From positions 1 to 57,958 of IMG/VR virus record IMGVR_UViG_3300037842_000637: a DNA stretch of 57,958 nucleotides; one strand, written 5' to 3'. Every line of letters begins with the position of its first letter. The stretch's first letter is position 1. Shown here one piece after another: positions 1 through 25,882 of the stretch. The notes under the pieces were generated by a model. It saw only the letters and a program-made list of their open reading frames with translations. It did no database searches and had not been told where the DNA came from. A program made the position numbers and the translations under genes. This DNA is from a virus. Lineage: Duplodnaviria; Caudoviricetes.

Positions 1-208
1 CTCGGTCCATGCCCTGCTGTTCACCAGCACGGTACAACTTCTCCATCAGTTCGTCGCGAGTAGTGGCTGCGGCTGCTCGTCGTGCCGGTGCCTCAGTGCC
101 AACGTCATAGAGGAAGCTGCTTCCGTATCCCGCCTCGTGTGATGCTGCATCCAGTATGTCATCAACGCCGGGGATTTCCTTGTAGCCCATGCCCCTGAGC
201 TTGGCAGG
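1..208. repeat. Terminal direct repeat / circular overlap, left copy
   Basis: Identical to 57751-57958 except T128 vs G57878; implies a 57750-bp circle. Confidence 0.97.
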
Positions 209-1159
209 GAAGCCCTCGCCGACCACATTCTCAACGACGATTGGTTTGTTCTGACCAACCAGTTGATCATGCAGCACGCGGAAGGCACCTTGTCCCTCTT
301 CGGCAGCTTCCACTGACGCTACCACTGTTGCGTCGGGAACCTGAGTGCTGCCGTTGTTCCAGTTCTGTCGACGCATATAGATGTCATTAAACAGCGGCTC
401 GTCCGCCACCCGCATCGTTGATTTGAGACCGAGTGTGCCTGTCTCGATCTGACTGAACTTATCAAGCCCTTCGATCGTGCCCGGCTGTAGTGTCGGGTCT
501 ACTCGTGGCGTAGGAAGGAAGTCATCAGACGGCCCACGGAAATCACTGATGCGATTGATGGCGTCGTCGAGAGTGTTGGTTACCCGGAACTTGGTAGCAC
601 CAGTACCACTGAGCTGAGCGATACGGGCTGCCTCGTCAGTGATGCCCGCCATCTGGCTGAGCTTGCCCATCTTGGTCAGTGCCTTGACCGGGCCAGCCAT
701 CGGTACGCCGAGCATGTCGACCGCGAACCCGGCCACGTCTGCCGCTGCGTCACCGTAGTCGATGTTGTCCCAGTCACTGCCGCCGAGACCATCGTTGTTC
801 TCGTCAGCTATACCCCATGTCTCCAACAGGTCACGACCATAGACCGTGTCCTCGTCGTCGGTCACACCGATTGAGTCATGGAACCAGCCGTCGCTCGACG
901 TGATGCCGAGTGCGTCACTGAACGGGATGGCGTTGGCAAGTTCTTCGGGACGACCAGCGAGCAGGCCACGCAGTGCGGCCATCGGCTTGTCGATTGACTC
1001 ACCGATGTACGCGAGGGAGCTGAGTCCTGCCCGCCCAAGCTGGGAGAGTAGTTCCTCTTCCTCTTCGGGAGTGATCTGCTGACCTTGTTGGCCACCGCCG
1101 AACATCCCACCGTGGCCGCCGCCGAACATCCCACTGTTACCGCCGCCGAACATCCCCAT
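1..1159 (-). CDS. N-terminal part of large polyvalent/internal virion protein (joins 54068-57958 across the junction; ~1613 aa total)
   Basis: Read manually: ATG at 1159 (MGMFGGGNSGMFGGGHGGMFGGG...), no in-frame stop down to the overlap, in frame with the ATG at 190 (=57940). Missing from the ORF track because it runs off the edge. Confidence 0.88.
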   Translation of the reverse strand, partial: MGMFGGGNSGMFGGGHGGMFGGGQQGQQITPEEEEELLSQLGRAGLSSLAYIGESIDKPMAALRGLLAGRPEELANAIPFSDALGITSSDGWFHDSIGVTDDEDTVYGRDLLETWGIADENNDGLGGSDWDNIDYGDAAADVAGFAVDMLGVPMAGPVKALTKMGKLSQMAGITDEAARIAQLSGTGATKFRVTNTLDDAINRISDFRGPSDDFLPTPRVDPTLQPGTIEGLDKFSQIETGTLGLKSTMRVADEPLFNDIYMRRQNWNNGSTQVPDATVVASVEAAEEGQGAFRVLHDQLVGQNKPIVVENVVGEGFPAKLRGMGYKEIPGVDDILDAASHEAGYGSSFLYDVGTEAPARRAAAATTRDELMEKLYRAGEQQGMDR

Positions 1160-1168
1160 AGCTGAACC

Positions 1169-3424
1169 TTATCTGTAGCCCGTACCCGGAACATGACGAT
1201 TCTGGGCCGCCCGTGCCACGCCCGCCTTGATGTCCCAAGCGACGAGCTGTTCCACAAGTGCCTCAGTCTCCGGTCCATGTTCCTTTGCTGTCACCATCGC
1301 TTCCGCGAACGTCAAGTTTCCGCTCGCCACGTCGCGGGCCAAGCTCCTGGCTGACTGATCAGTAGAACCGCCCCTTAACGCACGAGCATTAGCAGCGTCA
1401 GCGGCGGCCTTCTTTCTCAAGTCTTCAATGGTCGTCGGTGCTGGCGGTGGACCCGGTGGTGGTGGAGTGAAGTTTCCTGCTTCACCTAGTTTTGCGTTTC
1501 CTTCTCTTTGGATGTCGTCATGCTCCTTCTTGCCTATCAGGCCAGCCTCTAAGTCGTGCGTTGCCTTGGCCATCCTGTCCTTCACTGCTGGGACATTGAT
1601 CTTCTCTGGCTCTCGACGTGCTTCGCCAGTGGCTTTTACAACCTCAAGGTTCCGCTCATGAGCCAACTTGCCATCCTCTAAGGCACGACCACGATCCAGG
1701 AAGTCCTTTGCCGCAGCTTCCTTCTTAGCTTCCTCTGTCGCGGCCTCACCCCTGATGCGTTCACGCCGGGCAGTCTTCCGGTCACGCTGGTCTTTGATCT
1801 TCTTGTTCCGCTCCTCGATCTTCTTAGCCTTGAGCTGAGCCGCCGTCTGCTTCTTGGATGCCTCTGCTTCCTGAATGTCCTTGATGTACCCGAGCTTGCC
1901 ACCGCTCGCTGCGTCCGCTCCCATCAACTGTTTCTTCAGGTCATCCTGCTGCCGGGAGATAGTGTTCTGGATGGACGCTACTGCCCCGCCGACGTACTGA
2001 TCAATCTCGTCGTGGCCGGTCAGCTTCTGCTTGAACTTCTCACCGTTGCGTGCCGCTGCCTTCGCACGCTCGACGTTCTCTTTGCGTGCTGCCTCGCGAT
2101 CCTTGATGTGCTTACGCCGCATCCCGCCAGCCGTCTGCTCCTTGCCCCACCCGTTGTCAGTGCCTTCGATGCGGCGAGAGCTGATCGGTGTGCCAGTCCA
2201 CGGGCCAGCTCCTTCAGGAGCTTCCCTGCCCACGACCATGTCCCTCATCTTCTCCATCGCATCGCTGTGCTTCTGATTCTCTGCCTCTTCCTTAGCCCGG
2301 TTCGCAGTGTTGCTTGCCTGCAATCCAGCGAGCCTGCCGTTGAGGTTGGACATCGGGTCGACCTGACCAGTCTGCTTGTTGCGGAGTCTGGCCGCAGTCT
2401 TCCCCTGCTCAGTAGCTGCGTCCGGGATGTAGCTGCGTCGTCCTTCACGGGCCTTGTTGTTTCCATTGATAATGTCCCGCTGATTATCCATGTGAGTATT
2501 GATCATCGTCTCTTCAGGAGAGTTCCACGTTGGTTCGTCCATGCCCGCGAGCTTAGCCTTGAAGTTCTTGTACTGCTGCTCCGGGGACACTGAAGTCTCA
2601 GCTCTCAGCCGGTCGTTGTCCGGGTTGAAGCTCGGTGCCTGTGGCCGCTCAGGAACTGGGTCGAATCTCAGCTTGTCACGAGTCGGCATCACCGGCTGAA
2701 GCGGACCGTACTGTTCCTCTGGCATCGGTGGCATACCGGGACGTGGGTGCCCGCCCGTTGGCATCGGTGGTGCAGGTGGTCGCGGGTTGGGTGGCGGTGA
2801 GTTCTCTGGCATCGGTGGTCGTGGTGGTGTGCCCCATCCTGCTGATGGCCACCTGTGGGGGGGATTTAACACTGGCTTAATGTCATTTGACTCCATCGGT
2901 GGAGGCGGCGGCACCTGGCGGCGTGACGGTGAGTTCTCTGGCATCGGTGGTGCCGATGGTCGAGGGTGCTGTTGTTGCTGACGAAATTCCATCTCCCGTA
3001 AATTCTGTGGCATAGATGGAAGTGGATCAACGAACATATCAACACTGTCGACGTAGAAGTTAGCAACATTATCCAACATCCTGGTTGACTGCATTTGGTC
3101 GCCGTCCGCTATTCTTTTCCGAGCGTCTGCTGCCACATCACGCAATTCAGAGGTGGGCATTTGCCCCACTCTGTCCATGATTTCGCTAGGATTGAAGCGG
3201 TTCTCTGGGCCAGCCGGGGGAGTGCCACGACGTGCAGCTTTAGATGGGTACTGCAACTGCTGAGCTGCCGCCCGACGCTGCTGGGCCATCGCCTGCTGCC
3301 GCTTGGCTTCCTCGATCCGTTTAAGTTCCTCGATGCGTTCGCGTTCCGCTTGCTCTGCCATTACCTGACGTGCCATTGCTTCGGCGTCCGGGCTTTGGAT
3401 TTGTGGGATCGGCATGGTCTTCAC
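1169..3424 (-). CDS. Pro-rich/coiled-coil low-complexity protein, putative internal virion (ejection) protein
   Basis: 751-aa ORF; repeated PPMP(EN) motifs, charged coiled coils; lies between tail gene and large polyvalent gene. Confidence 0.6.
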   Translation of the reverse strand: MKTMPIPQIQSPDAEAMARQVMAEQAERERIEELKRIEEAKRQQAMAQQRRAAAQQLQYPSKAARRGTPPAGPENRFNPSEIMDRVGQMPTSELRDVAADARKRIADGDQMQSTRMLDNVANFYVDSVDMFVDPLPSMPQNLREMEFRQQQQHPRPSAPPMPENSPSRRQVPPPPPMESNDIKPVLNPPHRWPSAGWGTPPRPPMPENSPPPNPRPPAPPMPTGGHPRPGMPPMPEEQYGPLQPVMPTRDKLRFDPVPERPQAPSFNPDNDRLRAETSVSPEQQYKNFKAKLAGMDEPTWNSPEETMINTHMDNQRDIINGNNKAREGRRSYIPDAATEQGKTAARLRNKQTGQVDPMSNLNGRLAGLQASNTANRAKEEAENQKHSDAMEKMRDMVVGREAPEGAGPWTGTPISSRRIEGTDNGWGKEQTAGGMRRKHIKDREAARKENVERAKAAARNGEKFKQKLTGHDEIDQYVGGAVASIQNTISRQQDDLKKQLMGADAASGGKLGYIKDIQEAEASKKQTAAQLKAKKIEERNKKIKDQRDRKTARRERIRGEAATEEAKKEAAAKDFLDRGRALEDGKLAHERNLEVVKATGEARREPEKINVPAVKDRMAKATHDLEAGLIGKKEHDDIQREGNAKLGEAGNFTPPPPGPPPAPTTIEDLRKKAAADAANARALRGGSTDQSARSLARDVASGNLTFAEAMVTAKEHGPETEALVEQLVAWDIKAGVARAAQNRHVPGTGYR

Positions 3425-3492: not shown

Positions 3493-4608
3493 TTACGCCG
3501 TTGAACTTGCCAGGAACTGGAGCAGTCCGTCACGATCAGCAGTCTGAGCGTTACGAGCATCATTCTGTGCCTTCAACATCGCCAAGCGATTAGCGTTGTT
3601 GGTGTTGGCGTACTGAGTGGTGATGCCTGTCTCACCCTGAGTGTCAGCCATTGCACGCTGCAAGGCAGCACGCTGACCATAGGCACCAGCCTGCGGTGAA
3701 GCACCGCCCCCGCCACCCGAGTTGATCATCGCCTGCTCCATCGCTGCGTTCTCGCCCTGGTTCGCAGCGATCGCTCTTGTCGGGTCGATCCTCTCGTACT
3801 GATCACCGCCGATGCCTCGGCTGCCTTGGCCGCTACCAGCATTGGCCATCCACTGCTGAACCAGCTCGTTGTTCTGACCGTACTGCTCGTGCTGGTTCTT
3901 GTACCGCAGGTTTTGCAGGTCAGCCACAGTTTCAGCAGACCGTGCCTGAGTGTCAGCAATCCCTTGCCGTCCTGTGATCTCTGCAAGGCGGCCTTCAAGG
4001 TTACGACCTGACGTCATGTCCGTCATGCCGAGCTGGTTCGCGTAGTTCGCGAGCTGCCCCTCAAGGTTCTTGTCGATGCCGTACGTCTGAACGCCCTGAG
4101 CACCTTCTTGGATACGCTCATTGGCATCGACGCCATAGTTGTTGCCACCTACCTGAGCCTCGATCCCCTGAAGCTGAAGCATCGACGCCAACATACTGGC
4201 CATCGTGTTGTTGTCAGACCCATACATCTGAGCGTCAGCACCGATGCCCGCGTTGGTGACATTCGCCCACGCCTGCTGTGCCGCATTAAACATCCCGGTG
4301 TCGTCGCCGTTTTGAATACGGAAGTCACCGTTCTGCACACTTCCGCCAGAGTTCAGACCCCTGAAGTCCAAGGGCTGAAACGTCTCACGCTGTGGTCGCT
4401 GTGGTGGACCCCAACCACTCGACTGTGCTGGTTCAGGTGCTGGTTCAGGTGCCCCGTAGGTCACGCCGCTGCCGCCACCGAAGCCTTGACCGCCACCGCC
4501 ACCGAAGTTGCTGCCGTTGCCGTATCCGCCGGAGCCAGGCTTCTGTGGTGCTCCACCACCACGTCGCATCATCTGCTCTTGGCCATAGCGTTGTTGTCCC
4601 ATGCCCAT
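3493..4608 (-). CDS. Gly/Gln/Ala-rich putative ejection (DNA pilot-like) protein
   Basis: 371 aa; GGAG RBS; composition and AQ/AN-rich helical repeats typical of podophage ejection proteins; position. Confidence 0.55.
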   Translation of the reverse strand: MGMGQQRYGQEQMMRRGGGAPQKPGSGGYGNGSNFGGGGGQGFGGGSGVTYGAPEPAPEPAQSSGWGPPQRPQRETFQPLDFRGLNSGGSVQNGDFRIQNGDDTGMFNAAQQAWANVTNAGIGADAQMYGSDNNTMASMLASMLQLQGIEAQVGGNNYGVDANERIQEGAQGVQTYGIDKNLEGQLANYANQLGMTDMTSGRNLEGRLAEITGRQGIADTQARSAETVADLQNLRYKNQHEQYGQNNELVQQWMANAGSGQGSRGIGGDQYERIDPTRAIAANQGENAAMEQAMINSGGGGGASPQAGAYGQRAALQRAMADTQGETGITTQYANTNNANRLAMLKAQNDARNAQTADRDGLLQFLASSTA

Positions 4609-4657: not shown

Positions 4658-7600
4658 TTACCAGTATATGTTGTAACTCTCGAACGGGTTCTGCTTCGGC
4701 TGACTAGGCCAGTACGGTTGCCTGTACTCGCCCTGACCCGCCCGCTCCTGTGCCATCGCCGCTTCCATAGCCTCTTCCTGTGTCCTGGCCATCAGTTCTG
4801 CTTGTGATCGCTGGTCGCCGACTTGCTGTGGTGGCCCCATATAATCGGGATGGTTTACGCCACCTGGTCCGTAAGAGCTTCCGTCGCCGGGGTCACCTCG
4901 TCCCTCAAAGTAGATCGGGCCATCGTTGTCACCCCGCTGTGGAGGGATATACCCGCCTGTGCCGGGGATGCCGCTGCCGCCTGGTCCCTCGAAGTAGATC
5001 GGGTCATCTCCGCCGCCCGGCGAGTCGTGTAGTCCATCCGGTCCGACCTGAGACGGTGGTCCAAGGTAGTGGTCATCATAGGGTCTGTTCGGAGGTCTGG
5101 TGTTCGGAGGGTGACTGCCGCCTGGTCCTGTACTGCCGTCCGGGTTGTAGCCGGGGTACGGGTTGCCTGTCTCCGGGTTGGCACCGCCGCCGCCTGGGTT
5201 CCAGCCCGGTGTTTGGTATGGGTTGCCGCCGCCCGGACGCTGCGGGTAGCTGCCGCCGCCGTGACCTGGGCTGCCGTCTGGTCCAGGACCGGAAGGCTGA
5301 GAGCCTGGGTACGGGTCAAAAGGACGTGTCGTGTTCCCCGGTCCGCCTGCTGGGTCACCCCGCTCAATGGGTACTCCATCTGGTCCGATCTGCTGCTGCC
5401 ACGGTGGTGACTCAAAGGGGTTGCCGCCGCCGCTCCCTGCCGGTGCTCCGCCTGGTCCTCCGTTGTGTCCGGGGATGGGGCGGGTGCCTGGTCCCTGCCC
5501 GCCGGGCTTGACTGGTGTACCGTCTGGCCTGGTGACAGTCGGCTTGAAGCCCTGCTGAACGGATTTGTTATGGACGAGCACGTTCCCGGCGAAGTAGTTG
5601 TGCTGTCCTTCGACGGTGATGTTGTAAACAGGAACAGCGGTGGCCTGCGACTTCGGCACGATGCTGTCGATCGGCTGGTTCCCCAGGTTCCTAAGCAGTA
5701 CCTGGTCTCCAACGCTCAGGTCTTTGACTGGCACGTACGTCTGAGCGGTGACACTCCAGAACGGATGCTCGCCGGTCACTTCCAGCGTGTCGCCGCCGAC
5801 CTGTACCTTGAACGTATCCTTAGCGTCCGACACCAGCACGTCGGTGACCAGTGACTCAACCTCACTGCCCTCGTCATGATCGTAGGCTACTACTGTGTCG
5901 CCAACTTCGATCGTCTCGATCGCTGTCTCGCCATCAGGTGTAGAGATCGGCGTACCTACCACGAAGCATGTGAAGACTATGTTGCCATCCTCATTGTAGT
6001 GAGACCACGGTCCGAGGGGTGGACGGTTCGGCTGCTGGTTCGGAGGAGCCTGGAACCCGCCACCCGTTCGTCCGCTTGGGTCGTAGCCACCGTCACCACG
6101 AGGAGGACTGTTGCCACGGTCGCCCGGACCTTCGAAGGTCAGTCCGCCACCGGGATCGCCATCACCATGCTCCTGTTGGTTCCTGCGTATCCACCCGGCT
6201 GTTGTTGAGTTGGTCATGCCGCCGCCGCCGCGAGGGTCAGGCACCAGGTCCATTGTTACGTACTGAGGCGGCTGCCCCCAGGCTTCCGGGTAGCCTGTAC
6301 CTTCGGGTCTTTTCATTCGCCCGCCAGCCCCGCCTCCACCTTCGAAGCCCATTCCGCCGCCGGGACCGGACGGATACTTAGGTTGCGACGCATTATACTT
6401 CGATATCTCTTGAGGACTCCAAGTTCTCATGTCATTGGCGTCGCCAGCCCCGCCGCCAAATTGATTATACCACTGCTGGCTGCCCTGGCCGCCTCCACCT
6501 TCGAAGCCCATTCCGCCGCCGTAAATCGTGTCATTGCCTCGGCCACGCGTCGAATCCTGGGTCATGCCGCCCATGTTGTCTGGCCCACGGTTGTAGGTCA
6601 TCGGACCTTCGTAGGTTTCGAACGGGTTCTGTGAAGGCTTCGGCTGGCCGCCCTGCTGTGGTGGACCCGGTGGTTTGCCCTGGTTGTTCCAAGGATTCCC
6701 GCCCTGCTGTCCGCCGCCAGCTTCTCGTCTCGCCTTGTCCTCTGGCCGTTCGTAGATACGTGAGCTGACGTTGCCACCCATGCCTGGAGGTGGAGCCATG
6801 CCGTTGTTGATCTGCTGTTGAGCCGCTCCGTTCGCACCACGTCCACCGGCAATGCCTTGCCCAAAGTCTGCACCGCCGCCCTGCTTCGGAGGTCCGCCGT
6901 TGATCTGGTCAGGTCTCGTGCCGCCGGAGCTGGCCGCTGGTCGAGTCTGATTTTGTGGTGGACGAGGTGCCGGTGGTTTGCCCTGGTTGTTCCAAGGATT
7001 CCCGCCCTGCTGTCCGCCCTGTTGCTGGCCGCCCTGCTGTGTGAAGCCGGGGTTGTAAGTCGACTGCGGCTGCTGCCATCCACTCTGCTGCTGTCCGCCA
7101 ACAGGTATGACGGGTCCGTATGTGGTTGAGTTCTGCATGTCCTGCCACTGCTGAGCACCCTGGCCGCGTCCGCCGTTGGCACCGCCTGCGACCGGGCCTG
7201 TGTAGCTGGGAGGAAAGCCGTTGCTGCCGCCGCTCTGTTGGCCGCCGCTGCTTGGGCCTGCTCTGTATCGACCCTGATCGTCGTACCCACCTGGCGTGCC
7301 GGGGTCCATCCACCACGGGCGGTTGAGTCCACCGTTGTTACCGCCACCGCTGGGTGGTGCTCCTGGAGTTGAGCCGCCTGGTCCACCAGGTCCACCGTTG
7401 CCAGTGCCGCCTGGTCCTCCGTTGCCGCCGCCGAATCCTCCGTTGCCGCCGCCGAATCCGCCGCCGCCACCGTTGCCCATGCCGCCACCACCACCATTCA
7501 TGGTTGCCTGGTAGGCTGGATCGAACGCCATTGAGGATGGGTCACTCGCCGGATCGTACGGGTGGTCCAGTCCTAGACCTGACAGTCCTTCGACTCCACC

Positions 7601-8011
7601 GTAAGTACGAGGCCGCCCGAAGCGTTCTTCCCATGTTGGGGTTCCGCCGCCCTGATCTTCGAGGCCGTTCTGTGCCATCCAGCCGCCGAAGCCGCCATCC
7701 TCTGACATGGGTGGTGCCCCTGGCGTACCGGGCATCCCACCCTGAATGCCGTTCGATCCACCTGGTGGAATCAGCGAAGGGTCTGAACCCCACACGCCGC
7801 CCTGGTTCTGAGGGAGATTGCCCCAGCCTTGGTTAGCGTTGTGGCCGCCTGCACCGAATGATCCCTGAGTGCCGACACCGCCGAAGCCGCCACCACCAAC
7901 AGACATATTGCTGTTGTTCGACCCGAAGCCCCCGTTGTTTTGTCTGGCGGGAGGTCTGTAATTGCCGCCTGCTTGCCCGGACCTTGGATCGTAGTTGTTA
8001 TTTGTTGGCAC
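4658..8011 (-). CDS. Gly/Pro/Gln-rich disordered protein containing a Hint (BIL-A/PT-HINT-like) domain
   Basis: 1117 aa; Hint motifs CFVVGTPI, TGEHPF, VYNITVEGQHNYFA..VLVHN. Confidence 0.85.
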   Translation of the reverse strand: MPTNNNYDPRSGQAGGNYRPPARQNNGGFGSNNSNMSVGGGGFGGVGTQGSFGAGGHNANQGWGNLPQNQGGVWGSDPSLIPPGGSNGIQGGMPGTPGAPPMSEDGGFGGWMAQNGLEDQGGGTPTWEERFGRPRTYGGVEGLSGLGLDHPYDPASDPSSMAFDPAYQATMNGGGGGMGNGGGGGFGGGNGGFGGGNGGPGGTGNGGPGGPGGSTPGAPPSGGGNNGGLNRPWWMDPGTPGGYDDQGRYRAGPSSGGQQSGGSNGFPPSYTGPVAGGANGGRGQGAQQWQDMQNSTTYGPVIPVGGQQQSGWQQPQSTYNPGFTQQGGQQQGGQQGGNPWNNQGKPPAPRPPQNQTRPAASSGGTRPDQINGGPPKQGGGADFGQGIAGGRGANGAAQQQINNGMAPPPGMGGNVSSRIYERPEDKARREAGGGQQGGNPWNNQGKPPGPPQQGGQPKPSQNPFETYEGPMTYNRGPDNMGGMTQDSTRGRGNDTIYGGGMGFEGGGGQGSQQWYNQFGGGAGDANDMRTWSPQEISKYNASQPKYPSGPGGGMGFEGGGGAGGRMKRPEGTGYPEAWGQPPQYVTMDLVPDPRGGGGMTNSTTAGWIRRNQQEHGDGDPGGGLTFEGPGDRGNSPPRGDGGYDPSGRTGGGFQAPPNQQPNRPPLGPWSHYNEDGNIVFTCFVVGTPISTPDGETAIETIEVGDTVVAYDHDEGSEVESLVTDVLVSDAKDTFKVQVGGDTLEVTGEHPFWSVTAQTYVPVKDLSVGDQVLLRNLGNQPIDSIVPKSQATAVPVYNITVEGQHNYFAGNVLVHNKSVQQGFKPTVTRPDGTPVKPGGQGPGTRPIPGHNGGPGGAPAGSGGGNPFESPPWQQQIGPDGVPIERGDPAGGPGNTTRPFDPYPGSQPSGPGPDGSPGHGGGSYPQRPGGGNPYQTPGWNPGGGGANPETGNPYPGYNPDGSTGPGGSHPPNTRPPNRPYDDHYLGPPSQVGPDGLHDSPGGGDDPIYFEGPGGSGIPGTGGYIPPQRGDNDGPIYFEGRGDPGDGSSYGPGGVNHPDYMGPPQQVGDQRSQAELMARTQEEAMEAAMAQERAGQGEYRQPYWPSQPKQNPFESYNIYW
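5567..5968 (-). other. Hint/intein-like autoproteolytic domain (134 aa, no endonuclease)
   Basis: Cys1 at 5966-5968, block B TxxH (TGEH), block F VYNITV..HNYF, terminal His-Asn; +1 residue is Lys. Confidence 0.9.
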
Positions 8012-8053: not shown

Positions 8054-11000
8054 TCACTCAGTACCTGCGACGGCAAGACCCAACAGCCGGAGCTGCTCAT
8101 CGTTGGTCACGCCCTCAGCAGACACCGCAATGAACTTCTCGCCGCTGACTCCTTCGGGACGATTGCCGCCGAACTCCTGCTCGACGTGACCGCGTTCAGT
8201 CAGGTCCACTTTGTTGTAGGAACTGCCCTTCGTTGTCACTACTCCGTCAGTGCTGCCCGCACGTCTCGTTTCCTTGTTGACGTAGGCTGTGGCTGACCAG
8301 TCCGGGTAGAGCTGATAGTCCATCTGTGACGCAGCCGTCGTTGGTTCCCAGAAGACTTCGATCCGTCTGACTTCCCGCTGGTTGTTGTTGGTGAATGAGA
8401 GCTTACCAGTGCGGACTGACCATGAGACGCCAGCCACCTGATAGACGCTGTCGGTTGATGGTCTGGTGCCCCAGTGCTGAGAGACAGTCAGCATCGTTGC
8501 CGACACCGTCGTAATCAATCGCTGCTGACCACGACCTGTACCCTCGACGATCGTCAGGACTGAGCCGACCAGTCCGGCGTCGAAGGCTGCGGTGCTATCG
8601 GTAAGAGTTCGACCCCCTGTGCTGGTCGCTGTGCCTCGTACCGTACCGGCCACGCTGGGCAATAGACCATCGCGGGTGCCATCAAGCGTGAACACTCTGC
8701 GGCCAGTTGACCCAAGGAAGACAACTGACTGCCCGTCGACAACTCCGACTGTGCTGCTTGTGATTGGCCACGGGTACTCCTCGACCCACCAGAATCTCTG
8801 GTCGACATTGAAGCAGAGTGCGTGCCGAGGATACGGGCCGCCGTCAAGCGTAACAAAGAATCGAACGGTCCGTTGGGTTGAGAAGTACGAGGCATGGAAC
8901 CACTCCTGATTCTTCCATTGAATTGCCGGGGTGCCACTGCCCGCGAACACTGGCTTGATTGGACTGGACACTGGGTCGAGCGTGTTGCCGTCGAACATGA
9001 ACACACCTTCGCGGTCCATGATCACCGCCAGGTCGTCAGTGAAGGCGATGCACCTCTGGTTCAGTACGCCGCGTGGAACAATGAGCCGCATCCGCCCGTC
9101 GCCATTGGGTGTCGGTGCTGGGTTCGAGTTGAACGTGTACTGGTACAGCCCGGCCTTGAAGCCGACGTAGAACTTGCCGTCGAATACAAACTCAGATGTC
9201 ATCTCACCATCACGGCTGTTGCGTGATACCTGAAAGGTCTCGCCGGGATGCACCGACTCTGGGTAGCTGTCCTCGGACGTTACCCATGAGTGATAGATGC
9301 GTTGGTCGTCCGGTGCTGCTTGCGTAATCGTAGTTGCCGCTGCTGTCTGAGCGGCTGTAGTCGATTCCGTGAGAGCTGCCGTCTGCGTGTCAGCATTGAC
9401 TGCCGCGACACCGTGTCCCGAATCCTCATAGAGCGTGCGGCCATCGAACACGTTAGGCCAGTCAGTGCCGATTCCGGTGGCAGTTGCTCCATCGACGGTG
9501 ACCATCGACCTCTCGACATGATTGACTCCATAGAACATACGGTTTTGATACGACGCTACCACCCGCTTGTACGACGGAGGGGGCGTGTGTCGGCTCAGGT
9601 TTGAATCAACTCCGTTAGCGTCCAGCATGACGACAGCATCAGCACTGCCAAGTTCTTCATCCCCTTTGGTGCTGCTGAAGGTGTTGCTGATCACGTCCTC
9701 TTCATCGACGTCAATGTAAAACACACCCGCAGAACCTGGCTTAGACCGCAGAACCTGGCGTCGGGTAATTCTTGTTGACGTCGGGATAGCGACATCGGTG
9801 TAGGTGATCTTGTTCGCACCAGTCGCCCAGCCTCCATTCAGTAAGGCTGAAGTTTGTGCAGAGATCAACCCGGCATCTGTCTCAGTCAGTGTTCCTGTGA
9901 ACTCAAAGGTGAGTGCTTCCTCTGTGAGTGGTCCGCCTGTTACGAGTGCGTTGCCGGTGCCAATCGCGGAGATCGCTTCGAAGGCTTGCTGGACCTGGCT
10001 GGCAGTTGCATCGAACGCGATGGCCGCAGATATCTGAGTCGAGTATGTCAACGTGAACGTGCCGCCCGTCACTGCGTCAACAGAGACCTCTTGCAACTCG
10101 TTGCCGCCTTCAAGTCCACTGGTCGTCACTGTGCTGTTGAGAACCGGGAATGCCTGATTCATTGAGCTGGACGCTGTGACATCACCGACGTCCTGCTGAC
10201 TGAACACTCCCTTGAACTCAGCCACCACTGCAATGGAGTGGATCGGTCCGCCTGTTGTGCCGATGTTGCCTTCCCCGATGGTCGACAACGCAGCGAGTTG
10301 TGTCTGTACCTGAGCAGCAGTGGCGTCGAACCTCAGTGCTTCTGTCGTCTGCCCACCGAACGTCAGCGTGAAGGTGCCTTCGCCGGGCGGTACGTCAGGT
10401 GCCAGGCTGACCAGTTCGTTCACACCCTTGGCACCTGCCGTCGTGGTCGTGACCTTGGCTTGTAGGCCACCATCATCTGCTGTCATCTCGTCGAGGTCGG
10501 TCGCGGCCAGTGAGCCGATGAACTCGACGTTGACTACAGCACCCGGCAGTGGTCCCGTCGTGCAGGTGACGTTGTCGATATTGCTGAGGGCTTCGAGGGC
10601 AGTCTCCACCACGGCTGCGGTCGCATTGTAGGCGATCGCACTTGTTGTCTGTCCGCTGTACGTCAAGGTGAAGTCCCCATCGGTCGGGGTTCCTGTCACA
10701 GTGATTCGTTGCTTCTCGTTCGTTGCTCCGCTGGCACCTTCCACTGTTGTGACTATCTCAGCGACAAGCTGGTTGACGTCGGACGTTAGTAACACAACAT
10801 CCTGACTGTGCAGGTCGCCTGCGAACGTGAGCGTTGTTATGGCTGGCAGTGGACCACCAGCAGTGACGGTCACGTTGCCCGTCCCGATGGTACTCAGTAG
10901 CTCAAGTGCTTCGATGAGGTCTGCATTGCTGACATTGTAATCCAGCTTGGACGTGGTCTGGCCGCCGTGGGAAATCGTAAAATCTCCAGCGACAGGCGAG

Positions 11001-14000
11001 CCTGTTAGCTCAATAGTCTGCTGCTCGTTCGTGCCCGCACTTCCCGCACCCGACAGCTCAATACCTACCCACCCGGATATAGCATTGACGTTCGTGACTG
11101 ACGCCACGACTAGCTCGCTCGCCAGGTCGCCGATGAACTCAACTTTGTAAAATGTTAAATCTGCGAATATATTACCTCCGAGCTTGGTCACCGTGACGTT
11201 GCCTGAACCAACAGTGGATAACGCTTCCAGGGCAGAGGTGACAGACGAGGCAGCCGCATCACTTGTCAAATTGGTTGTTGTCTCGCCGTCCACTGTCATC
11301 GACCAGTAACCGGCGAAGTTCGGCAGCCCCGACGTAGCCGCAGGGTCGGTAAGAGTGTACGAGCCGCCGCCTGTAAGGCTGGCACTACTCAAGGTTGCTG
11401 TCCTGGTTGAGTTGTTTCCGTCTTCGTAAATCAGGACTAGCCCGGCTGCTACAGTTTGATGGGATTCCCCGACCTTTGGGTAGACGCCGGGGCCGATACC
11501 GGCTGGGTGGTCTGCTATTGCCGCAGTGTTCACGGCGTCTGCAATTTCCTGGCCTGTCGCGTCCCATGCTATTGCCGCACTCGTAGTGCCACCCGCCGAG
11601 ATAGTGAACGTGCCTCCGCTTACTGTTCCTGATACCGCCAGTTGCCACTCTTGGGGAGACCCTGCGTGAGTGCCAAGTTCAGACCCAGCCTCTATGACGT
11701 GGTAGACTGAATTGTTACCGAGCACACCTGTCACTGTTTCAGCGTGCGAGGAAGTCACACTCGTGCCTGTTATGTTAGTGACATCGCTGGTCATCTCTGA
11801 CCTGTTGCCACCAGCCAGAGACCCGGTGAATTCAACGGTCACTGCTGCTGGCAAAGGCCCGCCAGTACAGGTGACGTCACCGGCTGCGATGTTCGACAAC
11901 GCTTCAAGTGCGGTATCAATCGTCGCTGCCGTTGCGTTGTATGCGATGTTCCCTGTGGTCTGCCCTGAGTAGGTCAGCGTAAAGGTGCCGCCGCTCGGCG
12001 TGTCGTGCATCGTGATGGTCTGCTGCTCATTGACCGTCACTCCCTCAGTGAAGTCGTACTCGTACGCCGTGCCTATCCAGAACTTCGTGCCTGAGTGCTC
12101 GTCGTTGGCCCCGTAGTAAATCTCAAGGGTGCCAGCACCCATTGCGGGAGCACCTTCCTGATGATCAAAAATGATGCCGTCGTAGGTTGCCTGATTGGTA
12201 CGCCAGGCTACTGCCAAGGTCCACTGCCTCACTGTCTCGTCGGCGTGTGACGTGTAGAGTTTTAGTCCGTCGTGCTTGAAGCTAAATCCTCTCACCCGCC
12301 CGTAGGCACTGAAGTCACCCACGTAGTTCTCGCCGCCGTCATTGTCGTACTTCGCGATGATGCCTGTCTCGCCCGCCAGGCCGTACCACCCGCTGTCCTG
12401 TAGATAGAAAGCGTCGTTCATTCCGCCACGATTCACACATGCAGTGAAGTCTGCGGCTTGGCCACCTGACTGGCGATACATGGTGTTCAGGTTCCACGCT
12501 TCACTCATGTAGTACGAATGCCCTGTCCCCTCGCTACGGTCAGCGATATACATCAGAAACCCGCCGTCCTGCGGGTCCATGCAGAGGTAGTCACCGCCAA
12601 TGCCGATACCTTCTTCAAGCTGGAACCTCTCTCCTGTATCAGTCATTCCTCCGATGATGCTTCGCGGGACGGTCAGGCTGAACTTTATGATTACGGTGCC
12701 GCCGAGGTGAGCATTGCAAATCGCGAACGCGAACTCGCCGTCCCTTCCGCCAATCACAAATGTTCTCGCGTCATTGTTTCCGTCTATGTTCTGGAAACCA
12801 GTTGTCGTGCCCAGGTAAGAGGCATCAGACAGGTTGTACGGTGTCGAAGGGGCACCTGTTGCTATGGTCGTGATCGCTACGTCCATGCCGCCTGTCAGGG
12901 ACGCTGCGTTGATCGTCATCGTGGGCACGTTAGTCTTGGCCAATGCCCCGGTGAACTCGACCGACACAGCAGTGCCAGGCAGTGAGCCACCTGAGCACGT
13001 CACGTCACCTGACCCGATGTTCGACATCGCTTCAAGAGCAGCATCGACATTCGATGCACTGGCGTTGTACGCGATAGTCCCGGACGTGACCCCGCTATAG
13101 GTGATCGTGAACGTGCCGCCTGAAGCCCCGCCGATCAGGTCTATCTCCTGAGTCTCGTTGTTCCCGCTGCTGCCTGTAGTGGTGACCGTTGCCGCCAGCG
13201 TAGACGTGGCACCTGTGAAGTCTGGTTCGATCAGTGAATGGTTGGTGATCGCGAGTGCATTCTGGAAAGTCACCGTCACGTCAGCGGAGTTCAATGCCCC
13301 GCCTGCACATACAATGTTGCCCGCTCCGATCGTTGTCAGGAGTTCCAACGCTGCTTGAATGGTTGCCGCCGTCGCGTCGTACGAGATCGAAGTCGTCTTC
13401 TCTCCGAGGAACTCCAGCGTGAAGTTGCCTGACGTGGGTGTAGCCGAGTAGCTCAGCGTCTGCACCTGACTGACACCAGGTCCGCCCGTTTTCTTGACGG
13501 TGACTTTCATTGCAGGGACAGCACTGGTTGTCCAGTCACCATTTCCTGCTGAGCCTTCTAAGGCAAACGTGTCGGTCGAGATTACCCTGACGGTCCATGT
13601 TCCATTGGCAGCGGTGTTTCCTTTTTGCCCTGATACCCTGACAGTGTCGCCCGTCGTCAGCCCATGTGAGGCAGAAGTGATTACAATCGGTGCGGCGTTT
13701 GTGGCCCCGGTGATGTCAGCCCCGGCAGACCCAAAGGTCTCATGCACATCACTGATCGGTGAGACGTTCGACACCTTGCCAGTTGAATCAAGGAATCTGG
13801 TGTAGGCATATCGTTGACCAGTGAGAGTGCCACTGCCGCTACTGGCAACAGTCGGCTTCACGCCAGGTGCTTCGATCCCTGCTGAAGTGAGTGCTCCGTC
13901 GAACCTCTGAACCGGCAACTTACCGTGAGCCATATAGGCGACGGCGTCGTCCGACTCAGCATAAGAAGGCGGAAGCCAGCGGTTGCCAGCTCCCGCCCGG

Positions 14001-14674
14001 CCTGACGGTCCAGCCAGGGTATCCAGAATCGGCAGGCTGGCACCTGACCCGCCATTGTAGAGTGCCGCACCGTCAGCCACAGTGGGCGACGTTGAGAAGA
14101 GAGCCACCTCGTCCAGCACCCCGTCAAGGTAGTTGTTCGAGAAGTCACTGCCGAGGTAGAGCAAGCCGGTCTCAGTCAGCGGAGCACGAGCGGTGCCGGA
14201 AGCATAGAGCGTGCCGTTGACTTCGATGCCCATCCGGTTGCCGTCGTTGTACGCCCTGATGTGATACCAGGTATCAATCGCCAGCGTCAGACCATCGGTG
14301 TTGATCGTCGTCGAAGTAGCACCGTCTCCCACCGTGAACGCGAGGTCCGTGTCTGAGTGGTCGTACCACAGCTTGAGTGAGGTGTTGGCGTCTGTGCCGT
14401 CACTGCCCTTGGATACAAGGCTCATGTCTGTGGCGAGCGTCGAGAACTTGACCCAGCAACAGACACCCTTGAGTGCTTGGATCGCTGAGTCGTTGGGCAC
14501 CGAGCGGAACTGCCCACCACTGAGCAGGAAGAACATCCCCTGCCTGATTTTGCCGAGTGCTGTGGAGATGACCCCGGCTGTTCCGTTGTTCGTACCGACG
14601 ACGTCCTCACTGAGTGATCGCCCATGAGTGTCGTCGCATGGGTAGTAAGCTGCGAGACGTGAGTAGAGTGTCAT
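8054..14674 (-). CDS. Large tail protein: N-terminal LamG/ConA-like domain, FCCH-like domain, about nine ~95-aa repeats, propeller-like insert, C-terminal nozzle-like region
   Basis: 2206 aa; WYHI..Y..G...LDGVLDEVALF (LamG); ITGATNAAPIVITSASHGLTTGDTVRVSG; repeats NExQxI...GGTFTLTYSGQTT..IAYNATAA.V..ALEALS.IG.G.V...GGPL. Confidence 0.75.
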   Translation of the reverse strand: MTLYSRLAAYYPCDDTHGRSLSEDVVGTNNGTAGVISTALGKIRQGMFFLLSGGQFRSVPNDSAIQALKGVCCWVKFSTLATDMSLVSKGSDGTDANTSLKLWYDHSDTDLAFTVGDGATSTTINTDGLTLAIDTWYHIRAYNDGNRMGIEVNGTLYASGTARAPLTETGLLYLGSDFSNNYLDGVLDEVALFSTSPTVADGAALYNGGSGASLPILDTLAGPSGRAGAGNRWLPPSYAESDDAVAYMAHGKLPVQRFDGALTSAGIEAPGVKPTVASSGSGTLTGQRYAYTRFLDSTGKVSNVSPISDVHETFGSAGADITGATNAAPIVITSASHGLTTGDTVRVSGQKGNTAANGTWTVRVISTDTFALEGSAGNGDWTTSAVPAMKVTVKKTGGPGVSQVQTLSYSATPTSGNFTLEFLGEKTTSISYDATAATIQAALELLTTIGAGNIVCAGGALNSADVTVTFQNALAITNHSLIEPDFTGATSTLAATVTTTGSSGNNETQEIDLIGGASGGTFTITYSGVTSGTIAYNASASNVDAALEAMSNIGSGDVTCSGGSLPGTAVSVEFTGALAKTNVPTMTINAASLTGGMDVAITTIATGAPSTPYNLSDASYLGTTTGFQNIDGNNDARTFVIGGRDGEFAFAICNAHLGGTVIIKFSLTVPRSIIGGMTDTGERFQLEEGIGIGGDYLCMDPQDGGFLMYIADRSEGTGHSYYMSEAWNLNTMYRQSGGQAADFTACVNRGGMNDAFYLQDSGWYGLAGETGIIAKYDNDGGENYVGDFSAYGRVRGFSFKHDGLKLYTSHADETVRQWTLAVAWRTNQATYDGIIFDHQEGAPAMGAGTLEIYYGANDEHSGTKFWIGTAYEYDFTEGVTVNEQQTITMHDTPSGGTFTLTYSGQTTGNIAYNATAATIDTALEALSNIAAGDVTCTGGPLPAAVTVEFTGSLAGGNRSEMTSDVTNITGTSVTSSHAETVTGVLGNNSVYHVIEAGSELGTHAGSPQEWQLAVSGTVSGGTFTISAGGTTSAAIAWDATGQEIADAVNTAAIADHPAGIGPGVYPKVGESHQTVAAGLVLIYEDGNNSTRTATLSSASLTGGGSYTLTDPAATSGLPNFAGYWSMTVDGETTTNLTSDAAASSVTSALEALSTVGSGNVTVTKLGGNIFADLTFYKVEFIGDLASELVVASVTNVNAISGWVGIELSGAGSAGTNEQQTIELTGSPVAGDFTISHGGQTTSKLDYNVSNADLIEALELLSTIGTGNVTVTAGGPLPAITTLTFAGDLHSQDVVLLTSDVNQLVAEIVTTVEGASGATNEKQRITVTGTPTDGDFTLTYSGQTTSAIAYNATAAVVETALEALSNIDNVTCTTGPLPGAVVNVEFIGSLAATDLDEMTADDGGLQAKVTTTTAGAKGVNELVSLAPDVPPGEGTFTLTFGGQTTEALRFDATAAQVQTQLAALSTIGEGNIGTTGGPIHSIAVVAEFKGVFSQQDVGDVTASSSMNQAFPVLNSTVTTSGLEGGNELQEVSVDAVTGGTFTLTYSTQISAAIAFDATASQVQQAFEAISAIGTGNALVTGGPLTEEALTFEFTGTLTETDAGLISAQTSALLNGGWATGANKITYTDVAIPTSTRITRRQVLRSKPGSAGVFYIDVDEEDVISNTFSSTKGDEELGSADAVVMLDANGVDSNLSRHTPPPSYKRVVASYQNRMFYGVNHVERSMVTVDGATATGIGTDWPNVFDGRTLYEDSGHGVAAVNADTQTAALTESTTAAQTAAATTITQAAPDDQRIYHSWVTSEDSYPESVHPGETFQVSRNSRDGEMTSEFVFDGKFYVGFKAGLYQYTFNSNPAPTPNGDGRMRLIVPRGVLNQRCIAFTDDLAVIMDREGVFMFDGNTLDPVSSPIKPVFAGSGTPAIQWKNQEWFHASYFSTQRTVRFFVTLDGGPYPRHALCFNVDQRFWWVEEYPWPITSSTVGVVDGQSVVFLGSTGRRVFTLDGTRDGLLPSVAGTVRGTATSTGGRTLTDSTAAFDAGLVGSVLTIVEGTGRGQQRLITTVSATMLTVSQHWGTRPSTDSVYQVAGVSWSVRTGKLSFTNNNQREVRRIEVFWEPTTAASQMDYQLYPDWSATAYVNKETRRAGSTDGVVTTKGSSYNKVDLTERGHVEQEFGGNRPEGVSGEKFIAVSAEGVTNDEQLRLLGLAVAGTE

Positions 14675-20480: not shown

Positions 20481-21022
20481 TACTTCTTACTCCCATGCTT
20501 TTCGTTGACTGCCTCTCTTGCCTCGGTGGCTGAGAGCTTTTTGTTTGACGCCATGAGCTGGGCAACTTCGGGGGCTGCCAGATCATCAGCGAGTTGCGGT
20601 GCGTTTTCGAATGGGTCGACTTCAGGCTGCCGGTGCTTCGCGACTGTCCTGCCATTGATCTCTAACTCAGCTCCCCGTTCCTCTGCAACAGCAATAGCCT
20701 CTCCCCGTGACTTCACAAATGCACGCGGGTCACCGATTTTATTAGCGATCGCGGGCTGATAGACATCGTTCGGGCTGGGATTGTAGCCCTGCTGGCGGGC
20801 GGCGGCGACCACTGCCTCGGTATATTGCTCGTCGCCGTCGAACTGGTCCTGAAGTTTTCCGAAGTTTGACAGGAAGGTTGACTCGGTCTCAGCACTCGGT
20901 GCCTTACGCATCGCCAGCATCTCAGCGAAGCCGGGCTTGTTGCCCTTCTTGATCGCCTCAGTGTAAATCCACTCGGCGGTTGGGCCGCGACTGACGATGT
21001 GACGTGGGACGTTGATGATCAT
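20480..21022 (-). CDS. Hypothetical protein downstream of portal
   Basis: 180 aa, overlapping stop/start junctions. Confidence 0.7.
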   Translation of the reverse strand: MIINVPRHIVSRGPTAEWIYTEAIKKGNKPGFAEMLAMRKAPSAETESTFLSNFGKLQDQFDGDEQYTEAVVAAARQQGYNPSPNDVYQPAIANKIGDPRAFVKSRGEAIAVAEERGAELEINGRTVAKHRQPEVDPFENAPQLADDLAAPEVAQLMASNKKLSATEAREAVNEKHGSKK

Positions 21023-23320: not shown

Positions 23321-23812
23321 TTAGACAGAGGATGCGGGAGACAGTGCCCAATCGCGGACATCAGACTCCATGATCCCAAAGTTCTCAGCGATCTGAGCAA
23401 AATCAGCCCCGTCCTTCTGGACTTCGACCATCACTTTCTTCTTGATGGCCGCCTGACGTTCTTCGAGTTCTTTCTTCTGTAGCTCAGAGTCAAGAACCCG
23501 ATCGACACGCTCCTGCTCCTGCCGCTCCCGGAGCTTATCGTGTTCCTGGACAGTCGCCCATAGACCTCTCAGCTTGACAGCCTCCGGGCTGATGGGATTT
23601 GCCGTGTCTTTGAGCTTAGTCGTGTGGCTCACGGAAATGTGCTGGTACTCAACGCCGTTGTTGGTCCATGTCAGGTCGATGGTCTGGCCGTCAGGGTAGA
23701 CGCGATCAACCCTCACCTGTCGTCCGGCGTGGCGTTCAATCTGCCCGCCCTCGTACCAAACAACATTGCTGAGTTCATAGCACCTTGGTTTCGGTAGTGT
23801 CTTGCCGGTCAT
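23321..23812 (-). CDS. Hypothetical protein with C-terminal HTH-like segment
   Basis: 163 aa; [18 protein letters not shown]. Confidence 0.6.
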
Positions 23813-25488: not shown

Positions 25489-25882
25489 TGCTGACCTCCG
25501 CGTCGATGATGTCCGCGTTCTTCGCGAATGACGCTGCCAGCTCAGGGTCTGATCGAATGGCATCCTTGATAGCCTCAACGCGAATCTCTTCGAGTTCCTC
25601 ATCAGTGAGGTCTTCGAGAGCACGCTGTCCAGCCTTGGACGCTTTCTCCATAGTGTCGGGGATCATCTTCAAGAGGTCCGCTTCGACACGCTTGTTGTCG
25701 GTCTTCTTGCAGCGGTCCATCAGGTTGATGTACCTGTCTGCCCACCCCGTCACGCCACCGACTCGGTCGATGAGTGCGTCACTGAGTGCTGTCATGTCAG
25801 CAGCCGCACGACGTACGATCGCTTTCGTAGTCTCGGTCGACTCTTCCTTGACAGATAGCTCGGCGGGGGCGTCCGTGCTCAT
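25475..25882 (-). CDS. Probable terminase small subunit
   Basis: 135-aa helical protein overlapping the terL start; [10 protein letters not shown] tail. Confidence 0.6.

Follow-up and report, generated by a model that had tools for sequence, protein, structure and literature searches.

A putative self-processing Hint cassette, present in some family members only, in a low-complexity late protein of a phage

How does a protein-processing domain of the Hint superfamily come to lie in the middle of a phage protein that has no other recognizable fold, and what might it do there? Familiar examples of such domains are the selfish inteins of conserved enzymes, the bacterial modules that release toxins and the processing domain of hedgehog proteins. 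The case considered here was found in IMG/VR virus record IMGVR_UViG_3300037842_000637 (Duplodnaviria; Caudoviricetes), which we analyzed over its full length of 57,958 bases (the window; estimated completeness 94%). The gene in question occupies positions 4658-8011 on the minus strand and is open over 1117 codons from a GTG start (the homologues begin with MPT... at an ATG); its product is referred to below as P0001, of which P0002 in the protein database is an identical cluster representative. We propose, with moderate confidence, that its Hint is an accessory self-excising or self-cleaving cassette of the bacterial intein-like (BIL) type, carried by a protein that is hypervariable and encoded in the late (virion) gene block. 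The parts of the gene on which the argument turns are as follows (aa, amino acids).

4658..8011, minus strand: Hint-bearing gene (P0001), 1117 aa and stop; a Hint cassette between two disordered arms
5969..8011, minus strand: N arm, aa 1-681, rich in G/P/Q/N and free of Cys, with no predicted secondary structure before approximately aa 670
7712..8011, minus strand: conserved N-terminal part of approximately 100 aa, of the type MPTxxNYDPR...GGFGS...QGFGNIDQSHGGTFGTGG (alignments A2 and A5)
6611..6628, minus strand: NPFETY motif, aa 462-467 (NPFE[TS]Y again at aa 1108, NPF at aa 864)
5969..6019, minus strand: N flank, aa 665-681 (PLGPWSHYNEDGNIVFT), with P665, G667, P668, W669, G676, N677 and F680 invariant in the three Hint-bearing proteins
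5567..5968, minus strand: Hint domain, aa 682-815 (134 aa), of the BIL-A/PT-HINT type
5966..5968, minus strand: Cys682 (Cys1), the sole cysteine of the protein and the predicted nucleophile of the N-S acyl shift
5765..5776, minus strand: block B, T746-G-E-H749, with Thr and His invariant in the 22-sequence alignment A4
5567..5572, minus strand: His814-Asn815, C-terminal motif at which succinimide cleavage (Asn cyclization) is predicted
5564-5566, minus strand: Lys816 (+1), the first residue after His-Asn
5525..5566, minus strand: C flank, aa 816-829 (KSVQQGFKPTVTRP), starting at Lys816
4661..5566, minus strand: C arm, aa 816-1117, G/P-rich and Cys-free, with repeated PIYFEG, NPY and NPF motifs and an aromatic C-terminus

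The Hint lies exactly where an earlier note on this DNA had placed it (134 aa at 5567-5968; the codon of Cys682 is 5966-5968 and that of Asn815 ends at 5567), and translation bore out the Cys1, the TxxH motif, the terminal His-Asn and the Lys at +1. In a Pfam search of the 1117-aa protein, PT-HINT (E 7.3e-14; 52.6 bits against a cut-off of 27.7) and Hint_2 (E 4.7e-10; 40.5 bits against a cut-off of 28.4) were matched, Intein_splicing stayed below its cut-off and no further family was found. Scored on the DNA, PT-HINT reached 58.2 bits, and this was its only match in the whole 57,958-base record. The PHROG matches of the protein were all to Hint-bearing profiles, and neither Pfam nor PHROGs assigned a family to aa 816-1117; the earlier statement that no toxin or enzyme domain is attached thus agrees with the absence of any Pfam or PHROG match outside the Hint.

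When a profile of 22 relatives (A4) was compared with the PDB, 71 sequences were matched (inteins, BILs and hedgehog proteins). The best of them was the C. thermocellum bacterial intein-like domain 2LWY (E 8.6e-40); 8W20, a 1368-aa 'intein C-terminal splicing domain-containing protein', gave E 6.8e-30, Tetrahymena BIL2 (6Y75/6TMM) E ~1e-23, the best true intein (gp41-1) 3.5e-18, and hedgehog chains E ~1e-8 only, over the N half. An AlphaFold2 model of aa 655-835 had a core with pLDDT (predicted local distance difference test) values above 94 and retrieved 2lwy first in Foldseek (TM score to target 0.92), then BIL2. The column that we take to be that of the block-F Asp of canonical inteins holds Asn797 in P0001 and is Asn in at least 90% of the sequences of A4.

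The fold and blocks A, B, F and G are those of the Hint superfamily. Of the hallmarks of canonical class 1 inteins, the Cys1, the block B His and the C-terminal His-Asn are present, whereas a Cys, Ser or Thr at +1 is replaced by Lys816; nor is the site that of a canonical intein, the host being a hypervariable low-complexity protein and the inserted block not scarless. The hedgehog (Hog) type is contradicted by the presence of His-Asn and by the low complexity of the C arm. The gathering score of PT-HINT is passed and no toxin domain follows, while the sequence is nearer to BIL-A domains than to inteins or Hog domains, ends in His-Asn and lies in a variable part of a protein that is itself not conserved. 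On these sequence grounds the domain is classified as a BIL-A/PT-HINT-type Hint with an intact set of catalytic residues, not as a canonical intein, which is the assignment that the earlier note had made and which the Pfam, 2LWY and Foldseek matches uphold.

The likeness to the C. thermocellum BIL-A, the best match in both sequence and fold, extends to the Cys1, the T-x-x-H, the block F VYN...H.Y and the His-Asn, to a length of ~135 aa without an endonuclease, and to the toleration of a non-nucleophilic residue at +1. Both domains are also found within variable regions of proteins that are not conserved, a location described in a review as typical of BILs (PMC7765530). They differ in that the host is here a phage and not a bacterial secreted or surface protein, and in that the Hint of P0001 has long disordered surroundings, conserved flanks of its own and the Lys at +1. 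The second-best solved relative, BIL2 of Tetrahymena thermophila (BUBL1 polyubiquitin-like locus; 6Y75, 6TMM; ~25% identity), is zinc-regulated and flanked by folded ubiquitin-like domains; nothing comparable stands beside the Hint of P0001. As for the PT-HINT domains of polymorphic toxins (PF07591), metagenomic relatives at 35-38% identity have the form NCF..GT...HN followed by C/T, which we take as typical of pre-toxin regions. P0001 differs from these in having no toxin domain after its Hint, and in its Lys at +1 where 14 of the 21 distinct domains from metagenomic contigs carry Cys or Thr.

The arms on either side, earlier given as some 680 and 300 aa of low-complexity sequence, measure 681 and 302 aa. 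The N arm contains 27.8% G, 11.7% P, 9.0% Q, 7.8% N and 7.9% aromatic residues, the C arm 22.8% G, 18.9% P and 8.6% aromatics; cysteine is absent from both, and G, P, Q, N, S and T together account for 66% and 63%, respectively. The content of I/L/V/M/F/C in 40-aa windows lying wholly within the arms is at most 17%, compared with 28-35% in the Hint. In a full-length AlphaFold2 model, computed from a shallow alignment, secondary structure was confined to residues ~670-832 and the pLDDT was below 50 at 1038 of the 1117 residues. A search of the ESM Atlas with the N arm gave no usable match. The make-up of the arms suggests that they have grown by local duplication and carry multivalent short linear motifs. 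Exact repeats within P0001 were located at aa 333-348/434-449, 498-507/551-560 and 1003-1009/1031-1037; the repeated sequences are GQQGGNPWNNQGKPP (twice), GGGMGFEGGGG (twice) and PIYFEG (twice), to which three NPF motifs can be added.

Searches with aa 640-1117 retrieved two full-length Hint-bearing homologues, P0003 (898 aa) and P0004 (999 aa), which share with P0001 the N-terminus, the NPFETY motif, the Hint and the junctions GPW..GN.VF[TN]/C...VLVHN/KSV.QGF (here and below, a slash marks a border of the Hint). As a single-sequence query the N arm (aa 1-660) retrieved itself alone, the arms being too compositionally biased. A profile of the first 100 aa, the signature common to Hint-bearing and Hint-less members, recovered among longer proteins a family of eight clusters, five of them additional. 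These five were the product of the search for Hint-less alleles that the earlier note had proposed: P0161 (1057 aa), P0162 (696 aa), P0163 (757 aa), P0164 (857 aa) and P0165 (766 aa) contain no Cys, match no Pfam family (0/5) and showed no Hint in an unfiltered hmmsearch (--max) at an E-value of 10. With the three Hint-bearing proteins they share the N-terminus, NPFETY, YGG.NSPM.THGQTGEQIMAPG and FNPFGA..RP.MTYP, and NPFE[TSN]Y occurs in seven of the eight members. With its conserved N-terminus and NPFETY motif, this small, fast-evolving, disordered and aromatic-studded G/Q/N/P family of eight clusters is an uncharacterized type of phage late protein. The combination of a Hint with a long G/P/Q/N-rich sequence is confined to the P0001 family among the 150 closest proteins (at least 50% of its 748-967 non-Hint residues, mostly 15-30% elsewhere).

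The order of motifs is the same in P0003 and in the Hint-less P0164, the cassette of P0003 being placed between the NPFETY and YGG.NSPM motifs, and the inserted block exceeds the Hint by ~45 residues on each side. Since Hint-less alleles keep the overall motif order, the protein appears able to fulfil its basic function without the Hint, and since five of the eight clusters do without it, the Hint is not essential to the function of the family. A 'VQQG' direct repeat flanking the cassette of P0003 was considered as an insertion scar and dropped, as it is absent from P0001 and P0004.

Presence of the cassette does not follow the relationships of the N arms. The N arm of P0003 is 60.6% identical to that of the Hint-less P0161 over 548 columns, compared with ~30% to P0001 (N-arm blastp piece) and 37.6% to P0004 (in an alignment that includes the Hint). 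When presence of the Hint is mapped on a tree built from residues 1-440, three changes are required, and none of 200 bootstrap trees needs just one; an approximately unbiased (AU) test on the N-arm tree rejected the monophyly of the three Hint-bearing proteins (p 0.034).

Within the three Hint-bearing proteins the cassette is better conserved than its surroundings (57-60% against 29-38% identity). The Hint of P0001 is identical to that of P0003 at 80/134 positions and to that of P0004 at 75/132, with 60 of 134 columns invariant; the corresponding values are 189/497, 141/448 and 113 of 681 for the N arm, and 61/208, 90/273 and 45 of 302 for the C arm. Cys1, the block B Thr and His, the His-Asn and the Lys at +1 are invariant in all three cassettes. 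Of the 'sporadic degenerate insertion' against which the earlier note had set its proposal, the first adjective therefore applies and the second does not: the distribution is sporadic, and the catalytic residues are intact at 57-60% identity.

Conservation extends into both flanks. The N flank (aa 665-681) is absent from the Hint-less proteins and was modelled with moderate confidence as a short β-hairpin (pLDDT 61-81 in the fragment model; 62-66 in the full-length model, as two short strands); no other part scores as well in the full-length model, poor as that model is, and, to judge from these models, the flank may pack on the Hint. In the C flank, K816, S817, V818, Q820, G821, F822, P824, T827 and P829 are invariant in the three Hint-bearing proteins.

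The Lys at +1, to which the earlier note had drawn attention, proves to be no peculiarity of this gene in a wider sample. A HMMER search with aa 655-835 against 1.84 billion representatives gave 20,340 matches at E<=1e-3, and the sequences examined from these contained 352 complete domains in 158 proteins, with Cys1 in 348 and His-Asn in 344 of the 352. In the closest domains (family removed, duplicates collapsed) the residue after His-Asn is Lys in 242 of 343 cases and Cys, Ser or Thr in 33 of 343, against a background Lys frequency of 5.1% in the same proteins, counts to be read with the facts that the query itself has Lys at +1 and that one large tandem-Hint family predominates in the list. 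Of the 158 proteins, 118 have one or more domains with Lys at +1, and the same residue stands there in 15 of the 29 proteins that have a single Hint. Among distinct domains from loci located by internal motifs and not by the junction, the +1 residue is C in nine, T in five, K in two, I in two, and E, V and N in one each of the metagenomic set, and K in three, I in two, R in two, and D, V, N and C in one each of the viral set. All seven distinct phage tape-measure or tail proteins that do not have Lys at +1 have it at +2. Judged by these counts, Lys is the residue most often found at +1 in a Hint subclade, and no oddity of the P0001 gene.

The subclade is composed of proteins of several layouts. 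In 66 of the 156 closest relatives outside the family the first Hint is preceded by at most 60 aa and a long C part follows; in 27 a long N part comes first and at most 60 aa follow the last Hint. Among the nearest relatives with a single Hint (44-49% identity) are short proteins with a hydrophobic, Cys-containing N-terminus, followed at once by the Hint and ending ...VLVHN/K; on sequence, these N-termini are read as probable signal or lipoprotein peptides. The large tandem family (P0015, P0017, P0019, P0026 and many others) has 2-8 Hints joined by very short linkers (HN/KG/C, HN/K/C), often preceded by a short hydrophobic stretch at the N-terminus and followed by a Tim44-like domain at the C-terminus.

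These observations are consistent with the following course of events in P0001. After translation, the Hint would fold between the two floppy arms. Cys682 would attack the carbonyl of Thr681 in an N-S acyl shift aided by Thr746 and His749, giving a thioester, and Asn815, aided by His814, would cyclize to a succinimide and so free a C fragment starting at Lys816. In the outcome that we favor the thioester would be hydrolyzed, leaving separate arms of 681 and 302 aa and a free Hint; alternatively, the amine of Lys816 might aminolyze the thioester and rejoin the arms, in a BIL-A-style splicing that needs no side-chain O or S nucleophile. Cleavage is preferred to rejoining because in the one-sided layouts of the relatives a rejoining of flanks would serve little purpose. 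BIL-A domains are reported to splice without a +1 nucleophile (Dassa et al. 2004; Aranko et al. 2013), and the route is said to begin with cleavage at the C junction, the amino end so exposed then carrying out the aminolysis (Dassa et al. 2004).

Several points weigh against this interpretation. The virus is uncultured and known from metagenomes alone, and processing, its outcome and its timing are all deduced. The argument from layouts draws on relatives dominated by the one tandem-Hint family and does not transfer strictly to P0001. With respect to splicing, A-type BILs cleave and cannot ligate their flanks according to a review (PMC7765530), although the title of its reference 69 speaks of protein splicing, which indicates that the literature is not unanimous. 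The comparison includes only three Hint-bearing clusters; the AU test is marginal, its alignment being of low complexity and P0001 standing on a very long branch with deviant composition; and the placing of the Hint-less alleles in the same genomic slot is an assumption made from contigs of 44-60 kb (P0163-P0165). A folded domain would be expected to exceed disordered arms in identity even under modest constraint. Finally, the full-length model (eight sequences) has a mean pLDDT of 36 and leaves the Hint itself poorly folded, and is thus weak evidence for the flatness of the arms.

The cassette could instead be a selfish or neutral passenger resembling a mini-intein, one that spreads by recombination among co-infecting phages and splices itself out without benefit to the phage. 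Its patchy distribution, incongruent with the N-arm tree, would be explained in this way, as would the collinearity and similar net length of the Hint-less alleles; the cassette has its own conserved junction residues, as expected of an element that must function in arbitrary surroundings, and splicing of BIL-A domains without a +1 nucleophile has reportedly been seen. It has, however, no homing endonuclease in its 134 aa, Lys at +1 and Asn in place of the block-F Asp, and with some 45 additional residues per side (P0003 against P0164) its excision would not be scarless. Moreover, a hypervariable, disordered site tolerates imprecise deletion, so a parasite should have been lost from it and not kept at 57-60% identity; we consider such a passenger unlikely. 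The Hint is improbable as mere junk for the same reason, being intact where sloppy deletion should be harmless, and we infer that it has been retained in an active state where it is present. That it is inactive and persists as a small folded β-domain, for instance a binding or spacer module, is very improbable in our estimate: nothing speaks for it directly, apart from a non-nucleophilic +1 residue that would slow or block canonical splicing, whereas the residues for both cleavages are kept in three lineages diverged to 57-60% identity, and a structural domain has no need of the joint presence of Cys1 (the only Cys of the protein), Thr-x-x-His and His-Asn.

The earlier note had gone further than the accessory cassette proposed here and had postulated a domesticated switch, which would cut a packaged protein, or couple it to another molecule through a thioester, during maturation or ejection. 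Taken as a functionally required device, such a switch might join the N arm to, for example, a lysine of a virion or host protein or an amine of the cell wall. The invariance of the catalytic set and the conserved flanks would suit such a switch, as would the preference for Lys after His-Asn, the Lys at +2 of the seven tape-measure or tail proteins, and the proximity of the gene to a polyvalent ADP-ribosyltransferase (ART) protein of a kind proposed to be packaged and injected (PMC5512222). BIL2 offers a chemical precedent, since its thioester is resolved by the ε-amine of lysine and the N-flank is thereby moved onto lysines through an isopeptide bond (PMC8616854); external ligation by the Hint of P0001 is accordingly possible by precedent. 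Yet because five of the eight clusters are Hint-less, no essential step can depend on the Hint family-wide; the closest relative of one Hint-bearing protein (P0003) is a Hint-less one (P0161), no partner, acceptor or regulatory element has been identified, and packaging is argued from gene order. A required switch therefore has, in our view, a small chance of being correct. A narrower proposal, that the HN/Lys subclade uses the Lys after the domain as acyl acceptor, so that the thioester would be resolved by the ε-amine of Lys816 or by another lysine of virion or host to give an isopeptide-linked, branched product, we regard as a long shot. If it were true, a 681-aa disordered, multivalent arm would be stapled to its own C arm, to the particle or to a component of the cell envelope, which would represent a new viral form of protein cross-linking and add a third class of natural nucleophile (N, besides S and O) at the +1 position of inteins.

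An accessory cassette in P0001 is not the only instance of a non-nucleophilic +1 Hint in a phage virion protein. In IMG/VR contigs, Hints 32-36% identical to that of P0001 lie ~90 aa from the C-terminal end of phage tape measure proteins (TMPs); four of these were identified as TMPs by PHROG (L003, 5342-10705; L004, 6869-10717; L008, 4396-7449; and the database protein P0012), and L006, L007 and L009 were read as TMPs from their sequence. The residue at +1 in the TMP Hints is D, I, V, R or K. Some tape measure proteins are known to undergo a C-terminal maturation cut, and the TMP Hints may be a built-in means of making it. Further viral Hints were detected at the C-terminal end of a 1227-aa tail-fibre-like protein (L010) and in a protein of 400 aa (L017/L044) for which the PHROG match is to a 'virion structural protein', and the same scans yielded ordinary HN/C inteins (L013, L018-L020, L038 and L042).

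Self-processing of a protein that leaves through the tail is a plausible logic common to P0001 and the TMP Hints (L003, L004, L006-L009, P0012), given their 32-36% identity, their non-nucleophilic +1 residues and their presence in large tail or delivery proteins. TMPs are, however, helical, recognized by PHROGs and have the Hint near the C-terminal end, while the P0001 family matches no profile, has no helices and carries the Hint at 61-73% of its length. An identification of the Hint-bearing protein as a tape measure protein was rejected, because PHROG matches were confined to the Hint and no helices were predicted.

With phage mini-inteins (gp41-1, DnaB, TerL, portal) the Hint of P0001 shares the fold, blocks A, B, F and G and the existence of insert-free alleles, and it differs from them in lacking a +1 Cys/Ser/Thr, a site in a conserved enzyme and a scarless excision. 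Peptidase_S74 of phage tail spikes and fibres is a self-cleaving C-terminal intramolecular chaperone, discarded after the trimer has folded. Its likeness to the present case is a functional analogy only, namely single-turnover autoproteolysis in a phage structural protein, fold and chemistry being unrelated.

Two further arrangements came to light in the same material. One viral ORF (open reading frame) of 613 aa (L005:8736-10574) contains three tandem Hints (each HN/K), a Ser/Gly/Lys-rich linker and a hydrophobic C-terminal segment. In IMG/VR contigs L011-L016 and L021-L043, pairs of ORFs ~500 bases apart carry the N half and the C half of a Hint separately, the one in a product of ~138 aa (..C[VI]T[PL][ED]T..) and the other in a product of ~300 aa ending ANGILTHN/CYMKR; by their sequences, these pairs look like split inteins in fractured genes.

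In the literature, as far as the sources were accessible, we found no description of a Hint in a disordered phage protein or of a subclade with Lys at +1; supplementary intein lists lay outside this scope and could hold cases. A 2025 preprint includes tape measure protein among the intein hosts of actinophages (10.1101/2025.01.02.630785). What appears from the sequences to be new is the setting, that is, a phage late gene, fully disordered flanks and an optional cassette with conserved junctions of its own. The same applies to two wider patterns, non-nucleophilic +1 Hints in phage tape measure and virion proteins and a Lys-after-Asn subclade. An optional, intact Hint in an otherwise foldless protein parts the benefit of self-processing from any enzymatic function of the host protein. 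Should the cassette merely cleave, it would be a built-in maturation protease for proteins that travel through the phage tail; should the lysine be used mechanistically, intein chemistry would be extended and a compact (~134-aa), single-cysteine ligation tool would be at hand.

The Hint-bearing gene shares its strand and block with the genes of the major head protein, the terminase and the portal, and is situated between a tail-fibre-like gene and the ART-PolyVal side of the block. The neighboring genes are as follows.

26556-27698, minus strand: major head protein, same-strand late block
23809-25623, minus strand: large terminase, same-strand late block
21019-23292, minus strand: portal, same-strand late block
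8054..14674, minus strand: upstream 2206-aa protein, with an N-terminal Laminin_G_3 and many repeat domains matching tail PHROGs
3493-4608, minus strand: downstream 371-aa protein, low-complexity or charged, without a Pfam or PHROG family match
1169-3424, minus strand: downstream 751-aa protein, low-complexity or charged, without a Pfam or PHROG family match
1..1159, minus strand: 5' part of a giant gene, continuing across the record ends into 54068-57750

Gene order is what points to a possible packaged or ejection role of the Hint-bearing protein. Approximately 12 small ORFs lie between the portal and the 2206-aa gene in the minus-strand block. The 2206-aa protein, for which the label 'nozzle' had earlier been used, has no matches other than Laminin_G_3 and the repeat-domain tail PHROGs. 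Its repeat of ~90-100 aa occurs in many copies (..TFTLTYSGQTT..IAYNATAA..ALEALS.IG.G.V.C.GGPLP..); the PHROGs that it matches are annotated 'major tail protein' and 'tail sheath', and there is also a weak match to a 'tail tip cage' chain (9D93). The Hint protein is the first of three consecutive low-complexity late proteins, the 371-aa protein having a Gly-rich N-terminus and the 751-aa protein a Pro-rich stretch (PPMPE repeats).

The last 208 bases of the record (57751-57958) repeat its first 208 (1-208) except at a single position, and the junction of the ends is crossed without interruption in L045, a contiguous contig obtained from a different sample, and in L046. Because the ends repeat and L045 spans the junction, the genome should be ~57.75 kb in size and either circularly closed or terminally redundant, despite which the record is classed as linear. 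The open ORFs at the two ends are parts of one 1612-aa gene that is intact in L045 (L045:5605-10443). The only Pfam match in its product is an ART-PolyVal ADP-ribosyltransferase domain at aa 716-829, and the product looks, by its sequence features, like a polyvalent protein of the packaged or injected kind mentioned above. The processing domain named in the accessible part of the polyvalent-protein paper is MPTase, not Hint (PMC5512222).

No match to the terminase and portal was found among 50,697 GenBank phages. IMG/VR searches with the whole protein, the C-part of the 2206-aa gene and the 371-aa gene revealed no close relatives, and none were obtained with the N-terminal profile A2 in IMG/VR, with A1 in JGI metagenomes, with A5 in genome contigs or with P0163 and P0165 as IMG/VR queries; these are weak negatives, and in several of the blank searches patterns matched and tblastn did not confirm the match. 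In metagenomes, alignment A3 led back to this virus itself (L045, L046), and its remaining matches were to Hint proteins that are unrelated.

In these two further assemblies of the virus the Hint gene is identical over the parts covered (window positions 4658-6742 and 4658-5849), and all 17 ungapped differences from the window fall in the 751-aa neighbor, none in the Hint gene. A patch at window ~1083-1850 (minus strand), comprising the C-terminal third of the 751-aa gene and the start of the giant gene, is a divergent replacement between samples, outside of which the region is >99% identical. The 751-aa protein and its 756-aa counterpart are identical up to ~aa 473, show scattered substitutions up to ~525 and diverge strongly thereafter, and the patch resembles the outcome of a local exchange of alleles, in a protein that is charged and seemingly helical.

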